Positions 5,442 through 6,442 of a DNA stretch of 64,000 nt are shown here, one piece after another. Every line of letters begins with the position of its first letter. Position 1 is the first letter of the stretch. The translations under genes were made by a program, and so were the position numbers. Below the pieces are notes generated by a model that was not told the DNA's origin, made no database searches, and saw only the letters and a program-made list of their open reading frames with translations. The stretch is from Eledone cirrhosa (lineage: Eukaryota): positions 92,194,001 to 92,258,000 of the forward strand of contig OZ024744.1 in the NCBI GenBank assembly GCA_964016885.1, in the 5' to 3' direction.

Positions 5442-5538
<97 letters not shown>

Positions 5539-5684
5539 AATTAAAATACTAGAGTGTGTTGGAGTTAAACACCCTCTTCATATTATAGAAATGACAGTAT
5601 AAGATATAGCTCAATGTAATTAAACAGAGCCGAAGAATTATAAAAAATAAACCAAAGAAGCCTTCAATACATCAAAAGTCTTTA

Positions 5685-5727
5685 TTAGCCAACAATGTTT
5701 CGTCCTATTAAGGACTCATCAGGGCAA
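5685..5727 (-). ncRNA. Minimal type I hammerhead ribozyme
   Basis: Minus strand reads ttGCC-CTGATGA-GTCC(ttaata)GGAC-GAAA-CattGTT^GGC. It has the conserved core, a 4-bp stem II, a minimal stem III with a GUU triplet, and a short stem I. Confidence 0.8.
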
Positions 5728-6003
5728 GTAAAGCTACAAGAAGCACTATCGGCCAATACAAGCCAAAAACTCAGAAGAATATGGAGTATACATCTATTAA
5801 AGCTTAGGAAAGATATCAAGGAAAAGTTGGCTAAGATTAAGAGTGAGCAGTTACAAACATAGATATGGACCAAATAGCAAGGAAGTGATTAACATGTTGA
5901 ACCCACATTGCAAATATTGTATAATGCAAAAACTTGAAACACAAATGTCTTGTGCTTTCAAACATCCCCGCTGTTCTCTAGAACAGCTGGGATGTGTGCA
6001 CAA

Positions 6004-6097
6004 GACATATCTGAAGAACCTTCGAATGCAGAGTCGGATTTGATCTGTAACAGATCCTACCTCGAGCTGATCGACGAAGAAACATATGTAATATGTT
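6004..6097 (+). ncRNA. Type I hammerhead ribozyme with extended, partly decayed stem II
   Basis: GACATAT-CTGAAGA-[long stem II including GATCTG-taa-CAGATC]-GAAA-CATATGTA^ATATGTT. Stem I is 7 bp, stem III is palindromic (ACATATGT), triplet GUA. Confidence 0.75.
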
Positions 6098-6442
6098 AAT
6101 AAATTGTGGTTTGATGCGTTACTGATTCCTCGTTCTTTATACTATATATATGTATACATATACACGCATAAATTGAGATTTTGGCATAGGTTTAATATGT
6201 TAAATTACTTCTCTGAGTGATATTTTATCTGTATATCTATATTTTATCCATTCATTGAGATGTCTAAGTATTAGAGACAAATAACCTTTTAATTAATATA
6301 TATATATGTGTATGTATGTCAATACTCAACTTTTTCCATTTCTTAGAGGGTTCTAAACCCCACTATCAGGCTAAAGTTTCTTTAGTAAAAAATACAGTGC
6401 AAATTTCTTTTTAAATATATATATATATATGTATATATGTAT

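Follow-up and report, generated by a model that had tools for sequence, protein, structure and literature searches.

The window analysed here, a stretch of 64,000 nucleotides from the genome of Eledone cirrhosa (assembly GCA_964016885.1, contig OZ024744.1, forward-strand positions 92,194,001 to 92,258,000), contains an island of about 600 bp with two hammerhead ribozyme motifs that point outward and have no microsatellite between them. From left to right, the island is built of a TA array, the end of one element (family A) on the minus strand, a 33-bp remnant of a second element (family B), also on the minus strand, a forward arm of family B on the plus strand, and a short TA run. The features are as follows:

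5445..5536, strand not applicable: (TA)46 array into which the family A 3' end runs; target site
5537..5947, minus strand: 5'-truncated 3' end of family A (pseudo-LTR plus tail, 411 bp), with copies 98-100% alike and, in longer copies, an ORF upstream
5537..5636, minus strand: family A tail, bounded by the long and the short 3' end site (end at about 5636, approximate)
5680..5733, minus strand: type I hammerhead of family A, with intact core, GUU triplet and near-palindromic stem III (dimer type)
5945..5947, strand not applicable: 3-nt ATG microhomology at the A/B junction, common to the A continuation and the B inverted arm
5945..5977, minus strand: what is left of the inverted (left) arm in a head-to-head family B pair, forming a hairpin with the right arm
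5980..6143, plus strand: forward arm of family B, an older hammerhead-bearing 3' end that stops at the short end site, without tail
6005..6096, plus strand: family B hammerhead (type I), whose stem II region spans 61 nt and whose stem III is palindromic; GUA triplet
6141..6165, strand not applicable: short degenerate TA run at the family B 3' end

The island holds 10 overlapping open reading frames of 30-66 aa, none of them meaningful. Immediately to its left, a 120-bp island (5326-5444) lies between two TA arrays; the same repeat also occurs as an inverted pair in loci L043 and L061 and is probably the tail of another element. Elsewhere in the window, long tracts with strong, constant GC and AT skew (26000-46000 and 56000-64000) are probably satellite arrays.

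Both hammerheads had been proposed in a reading of the sequence alone, and both are real: a structure descriptor and the core elements located one on each strand, in the outward orientation. The minus-strand motif, originally placed at 5685-5727, has slightly wider limits (5680-5733). Its core comprises CUGAUGA (5722-5716), stem II (5715-5702; 4 bp plus a fifth pair) and GAAA (5701-5698); stem III has 2 bp, stem I consists of 3 bp, a 3x3 loop and 5 bp, and the GUU cleavage triplet ends at 5691, with the cut predicted between 5691 and 5690. The Rfam HH9 model matched this motif with 28.5 bits (E 1.1e-4), under its gathering score of 52, and at gathering scores Rfam gave no matches in the window. 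The plus-strand motif, which had no Rfam match, has a 6-bp stem I (6005-6010/6091-6096), the core elements CUGAAGA (6011-6017) and GAAA (6079-6082) on either side of the stem II region, and a GUA triplet ending at 6090, after which the cut is predicted. However, the first two positions of its stem II are A.A and C.A mismatches, the A at 6077 being carried by 6 of the 55 copies compared, and a fold with stem I forced lies 3.8 kcal/mol above the free minimum. Because of these two properties, the family B hammerhead of the window is likely impaired, to judge by the predicted folds.

As motifs, the hammerheads are not due to chance: the descriptor found 8 in the window versus 0-2 in 20 block shuffles (none in 18 of the 20). 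Six more type I hammerheads in the window belong to other repeat families, the nearest about 500 bp to the right of the island, and were located with the descriptor:

6591-6651, plus strand
18933-18967, plus strand
19520-19589, minus strand
21802-21832, plus strand
54514-54552, plus strand
54920-54965, minus strand

Two additional cores, at 48163-48191 (minus) and 49778-49806 (plus), failed the stem I test.

Each hammerhead had also been described as followed by an AATAAA-containing tail into TA repeats. The hexamers are present (5686-5681 on the minus strand and 6098-6103), and the left flank is indeed the (TA)46 array; however, the minus-strand hexamer is simply the 3' strand of stem I, and the right flank is merely a short degenerate TA run. 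A role of AATAAA as polyadenylation signal was rejected, because neither end carries poly(A), the ends are fixed by family and lie in TA, and on the minus strand the hexamer belongs to stem I. Matches to miRNA families at 5940-6013 were set aside as well, since they merely reflect the hairpin formed by the family B arms.

A search of the 3.0-Gb assembly with the whole island yielded 3,967 candidates; among the best 40, which were scored, all except the window itself matched solely 5537-5947 (query positions 1-411), with 98-100% identity. With the right part as query there were 1,892 candidates, and the best-matching other copies are 84-96% alike. By contrast, a 22-mer across the A/B junction had a single match in the assembly with up to 1 mismatch allowed, and of the 29 other family A loci that we read, none goes on into B; A is followed there by its own upstream sequence or by other DNA. 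Thus, each half occurs separately at high copy number and the junction is single-copy, the outcome that the sequence-only reading had itself named as refuting its bolder proposal, one ambisense element; its more conservative proposal, two different elements joined 5' to 5', is borne out. The halves are not mini-elements, as had been supposed, but truncated ends of Penelope-like elements, as established for A and inferred for B (see below). The ATG at 5945-5947 fits the natural continuation of both A and the inverted arm of B. Immediately next to A lies a B remnant in the same orientation, an arrangement compatible with both deletion and fold-back models. In public sequencing runs, no listed piece bridges the junction, and all 4 runs left 5950-5998 uncovered at 97% likeness; we weighed this observation neither way.

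Viroids carry ribozymes in both polarities, and in this respect the island resembles the hammerhead viroids (Avsunviroidae). That the island is a single viroid-like or retrozyme element, replicated by symmetric rolling circle and then retro-inserted, nevertheless has almost nothing to recommend it beyond the hammerheads on both strands, the lack of a microsatellite between them and the fact that both strands fold better than shuffled sequences (z -4.7 and -2.8). The good folds can be accounted for by the family B hairpin: the segment 5943-6010 folds with -39.7 kcal/mol (z -10.4) and by itself exceeds the excess of either strand over the shuffles. The predicted circular fold is not the anticipated rod but branched, with 53-63% of the bases paired and 10-12 hairpin loops. 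Furthermore, the base of B stem II is broken, the two halves behind the unique junction come from separate families of different age, and family A continues into an ORF for a reverse transcriptase (RT) and endonuclease. Unlike retrozymes and viroids, the island has no tandem same-strand units, terminal redundancy or multi-copy two-ribozyme unit; a non-LTR retrozyme was rejected for the same reason, the published definition requiring tandem repeats with a same-strand type I hammerhead in two or more units (10.64898/2026.07.22.740005). The likeness to non-LTR retrozymes is confined to type I hammerheads with a short palindromic stem III (10.64898/2026.07.22.740005). There is no sign that the island is replicated as a whole; each hammerhead belongs to the pseudo-LTR of its own element.

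Family A is abundant and uniform. The exact 31-nt hammerhead core occurs in 2,396 copies in the assembly, the GUU triplet is present in all 51 motifs compared and stem III is identical in 48 of them. In most copies, TA directly abuts the same 3' base. Copies end either about 50 or about 154 nt beyond the core, at what are likely two reverse-transcription start sites. Two loci contain same-strand hammerheads 4.67 kb (L167:3533-8204) and 4.76 kb (L168:3519-8276) apart that enclose a broken RT-endonuclease ORF, and in the full-length copy L167 the A tail continues into the region upstream of the ORF. The A arm of the window is 88-89% like the pseudo-LTRs of these units. We note that these near full-length, Hydra-like units (~4.7 kb) carry stops or frameshifts, and that a long Asn/Arg-rich stretch separates the RT from the endonuclease, which recalls the N-rich inserts of rotifer Penelopes (PMC3846280).

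The motifs RWR, ADKT, YRDD, CNCRVSANC, VY...YIG without internal CxxC, CNLC and CPH were found in the family A ORF. Of the 7 ORF pieces upstream of longer A copies, 4 matched GIY-YIG (PF01541) with E values of 0.0004-0.001, below the Pfam cut-off. Pfam detected neither an RT family nor GIY-YIG in 4 pieces of L167 and L168, and nothing useful in these pieces or in 4 homologues beyond the precomputed accession PF26215; the RT assignment thus rests on the motifs and on 178 mostly nameless homologues, those with names coming from an argonaut, a coral and a sea anemone. The type I hammerhead in a pseudo-LTR, the inverted truncated copy and the one-sided tail are those of a Penelope-like element, and together these sequence features identify family A as such, with a predicted RT and C-terminal GIY-YIG endonuclease between pseudo-LTRs.

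By its motifs, family A appears to be Hydra-like. As in the Hydra clade (PMC8557442), it has RW(R), DKT, YRDD, a CxCx5C linker, a canonical hammerhead and insertion into (TA)n; CCHH is absent, and CxxC is missing from within the GIY-YIG core but present, with CxH, near the C-terminus. Unlike the clade as described there, the unit is ~4.7 kb rather than <3 kb, has RWR instead of RWK and is present in thousands of copies; the length is a tendency of the clade, not a rule (PMC8557442).

Family B is represented by ~200 bp at the right of the island, namely the 33-bp inverted remnant and the forward arm. Copies of the family stop at one of two fixed 3' ends, separated by about 75 nt and each followed by TA; inverted pairs are frequent. 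Positions 5945-5977 repeat the 5' part of B in inverted orientation (self inverted match, 79%) and form a strong hairpin with 5980-6010. No coding parent was found for family B: the upstream sequence fades into microsatellites, and none of the copies ran past the tail into an ORF, all 30 tails examined running into TA-type repeats. Its architecture, that is, a hammerhead-bearing 3' end, inverted pairs, a one-sided tail and a TA target, makes family B likely a Penelope-like element as well.

To place the island in its genomic context, we considered pairs of neighbouring hammerheads. In a contiguous sample of 664 kb (the window, an adjacent 200 kb and two further blocks of 200 kb chosen arbitrarily), there were 66 hammerhead motifs and 10 minus/plus neighbour pairs spaced by less than 1.5 kb. 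With hammerheads this common, two of them near each other are to be expected. Of the 10 minus/plus pairs, 9 are between motifs of the same family by core sequence, the tenth being this island, and 7 of those 9 have no simple repeat over 6 nt between the motifs. All 9 plus/minus pairs in the sample are separated by a microsatellite of at least 28 nt. Likewise, among neighbours within 10 kb, counted over the first 100 family A cores listed, 17 were minus/plus, 2 tandem and none plus/minus. Thus, outward-facing hammerhead pairs are a normal form of insertion in this genome.

Joints between different families are rare. When direct head-to-head joints were counted by homology to trimmed natural seeds in all DNA compared, about 0.9 Mb of which had been selected by the A or B searches, 78 were between copies of the same family and 4 between different families. 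Besides the island, the different-family joints without microsatellite are:

L062:4951-5625
L116:607-910
L124:1-570, the left part of which also occurs in L298

The L124 joint has a perfect 22-bp hairpin, like that of the window. Different-family tandem joints without microsatellite numbered 5, some of them likely artefacts of the seeds.

The loci compared contain at least 22 hammerhead families with two or more copies each, at a density of about one motif per 10 kb. In several of these families stem II carries a long insert of 30-61 nt and the palindromic stem III varies; the set is rich and apparently unannotated. One family obtained by clustering, F5, forms direct partial tandems with a period of ~400-430 bp (L070:3000-3740 and L298:850-1665) and resembles a non-LTR retrozyme.

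The same-family inverted pairs follow a pattern that bears on their formation. One long and one short end were found in 28 of 32 B pairs and in 7 of 7 A pairs, and in 11 of the 32 B pairs the arms overlap by no more than 15 nt. Self-priming on an antisense template has been proposed as the source of such pairs (PMC3846280). In vitro, a Penelope-like enzyme of the anole cleaves AT-rich DNA on either strand and extends both; its synthesis begins at two positions on the RNA, one at each border of the tail, and the enzyme is predicted to be dimeric (PMC11167929). The long and short ends and the barely overlapping arms fit two-sided priming better than antisense self-priming, arms with almost no overlap being what favours it over fold-back copying. 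We infer that each side of a single break is primed at a different start site, the two cDNAs being joined by microhomology. The suggestion of the sequence-only reading that both sides of one break were primed therefore suits the same-family pairs, in which it agrees with the ends and the small overlaps; for the A/B joint itself, the difference in age favours two events at different times.

The A arm of the island is young. It is identical to locus L002 over 409 of 409 bp and has a letter other than the commonest in a single column out of 411, whereas the B arm does so in 7 of 165 columns (Fisher p 0.0009; both divergences are rough, the comparison sets being best matches, the best 40 of thousands scored), and the nearest compared copy of B differs at 6 of 137 positions. 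A 26-mer of B with a private deletion is unique in the assembly with up to 2 mismatches allowed. The two arms of B differ from each other at 3 or more positions in 34 nt, for which the Poisson p is 0.0007-0.014 if B were as young as A. More generally, the arms of A/A pairs are mostly 98-100% alike and those of B/B pairs at most 95%, although several of these identities come from alignments across the axis and understate the true values.

Because the A arm is nearly identical to other copies, B has private changes and the B arms differ, sequential insertion is likelier than one break filled from two RNAs. The unique head-to-head joint of a young A end and an older B end thus most likely arose in two steps at different times (probability roughly 0.78). 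In the first step, B would have entered a TA array as an inverted pair, primed on both sides of the break. Much later, A would have been reverse-transcribed from a cut in the left TA array, and its truncated 5' end would have been joined through the 3-nt ATG, at a point 33 bp away from the centre of symmetry of the B palindrome. The remainder of the left B arm would have been lost during the A insertion or by a later deletion. Two observations count against this order of events: the island obeys the long/short rule (A long, B short), which mildly favours a single event, and no allele without A but with an intact B pair was seen.

The alternative is a single cut in the TA array, the left side of which was primed by an A RNA at the long site and the right side by a B RNA at the short site, whereupon the B cDNA would have folded back over 33 nt and paired at the ATG with the end of the A cDNA. 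We consider both this scheme and its extension to the few similar hetero-joints, as single insertions in which an enzyme dimer primed two RNAs of different families, to be unlikely. Apart from the long/short rule, it draws on the 11 of 32 B pairs with minimal overlap, which two-sided priming can produce and fold-back copying cannot, on the anole enzyme with its use of both strands, two RNA sites and predicted dimer (PMC11167929), and on tumours, in which two L1s are found joined at their 5' ends (10.1101/2024.08.27.596794). However, the divergence of the A arm is ~20-fold lower than that of the B arm; copying by fold-back should give identical arms, yet those of B show at least 3 differences; the assembly holds no source locus for the private variant of B; and there is no young B pair among the pairs compared. 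The three other different-family joints without microsatellite (L062, L116 and L124), one of which, L124, shares the short joint hairpin, speak for a single event in part: L062 breaks the rule with two long ends, both halves of L124 are old (94% and 88% to their nearest copies) and hence not discriminating, and different-family tandem joints without microsatellite are about equally frequent (5), as deletion predicts. An assembly mis-join of an A copy with a B palindrome is more improbable still. The junction does lie against a hairpin, amid many repeats, and structures of this sort are hard to assemble (PMC8557442), but the microhomology, the TA-bounded ends and the three similar hetero-joints elsewhere look biological, and the private variants of the B part are those expected of a real single locus.

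The architecture of the island has close published parallels. Insertions of EN+ Penelope-like elements comprise an inverted 5'-truncated copy, a one-sided tail and TA targeting (PMC8557442), head-to-head Penelope pairs form palindromes with microhomology at the 5' junctions and deletions (PMC3846280), and elements of Schistosoma carry dual hammerheads on opposite strands, 100-700 bp apart (PMC4209133). The island shares the outward hammerhead ends, one-sided tail, TA target, palindrome and 5' microhomology of complex EN+ insertions (PMC8557442; PMC3846280), and the spacing of its hammerheads, 288 nt, is inside the published range (PMC4209133). It differs from the published insertions in that its arms come from different families of different age, and the tails are longer, ~100 nt (A) and 75 nt (B) versus 30-40 bp (PMC8557442; PMC3846280; PMC4209133). 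Among the titles and abstract openings listed from an open-access library, none concerned head-to-head joints between different Penelope families, which is not proof of absence. Expansions of Penelope-like elements have been recorded in an octopus, in passages that make no mention of ribozymes (PMC13282606). The twin priming and bridges of L1 offer a parallel, two cDNAs from two sides of the target being joined by microcomplementarity into an inverted structure (10.1101/2024.08.27.596794); however, L1 uses poly(A) and spurious internal priming, whereas here there are two fixed end sites and no poly(A), and for this island the synchrony of two RNAs is disfavoured by age.

The island is thus a real but ordinary feature, a dead chimeric footprint of two Penelope-type ends, and the architecture of outward-facing hammerhead pairs has already been published for Penelope-like elements. 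If, however, the two-RNA reading were true, the island would be genomic proof that two templates, each used from a start site of its own, underlie the inverted structure of these elements; it would also mean that Penelope families can be cross-mobilised. The locus also carries a warning: in animal DNA, hammerheads on both strands are what inverted Penelope insertions normally leave behind and do not point to viroid-like replicons. Of more value than the island itself is the pattern of long and short ends in the inverted pairs, which is testable at scale with thousands of young copies.
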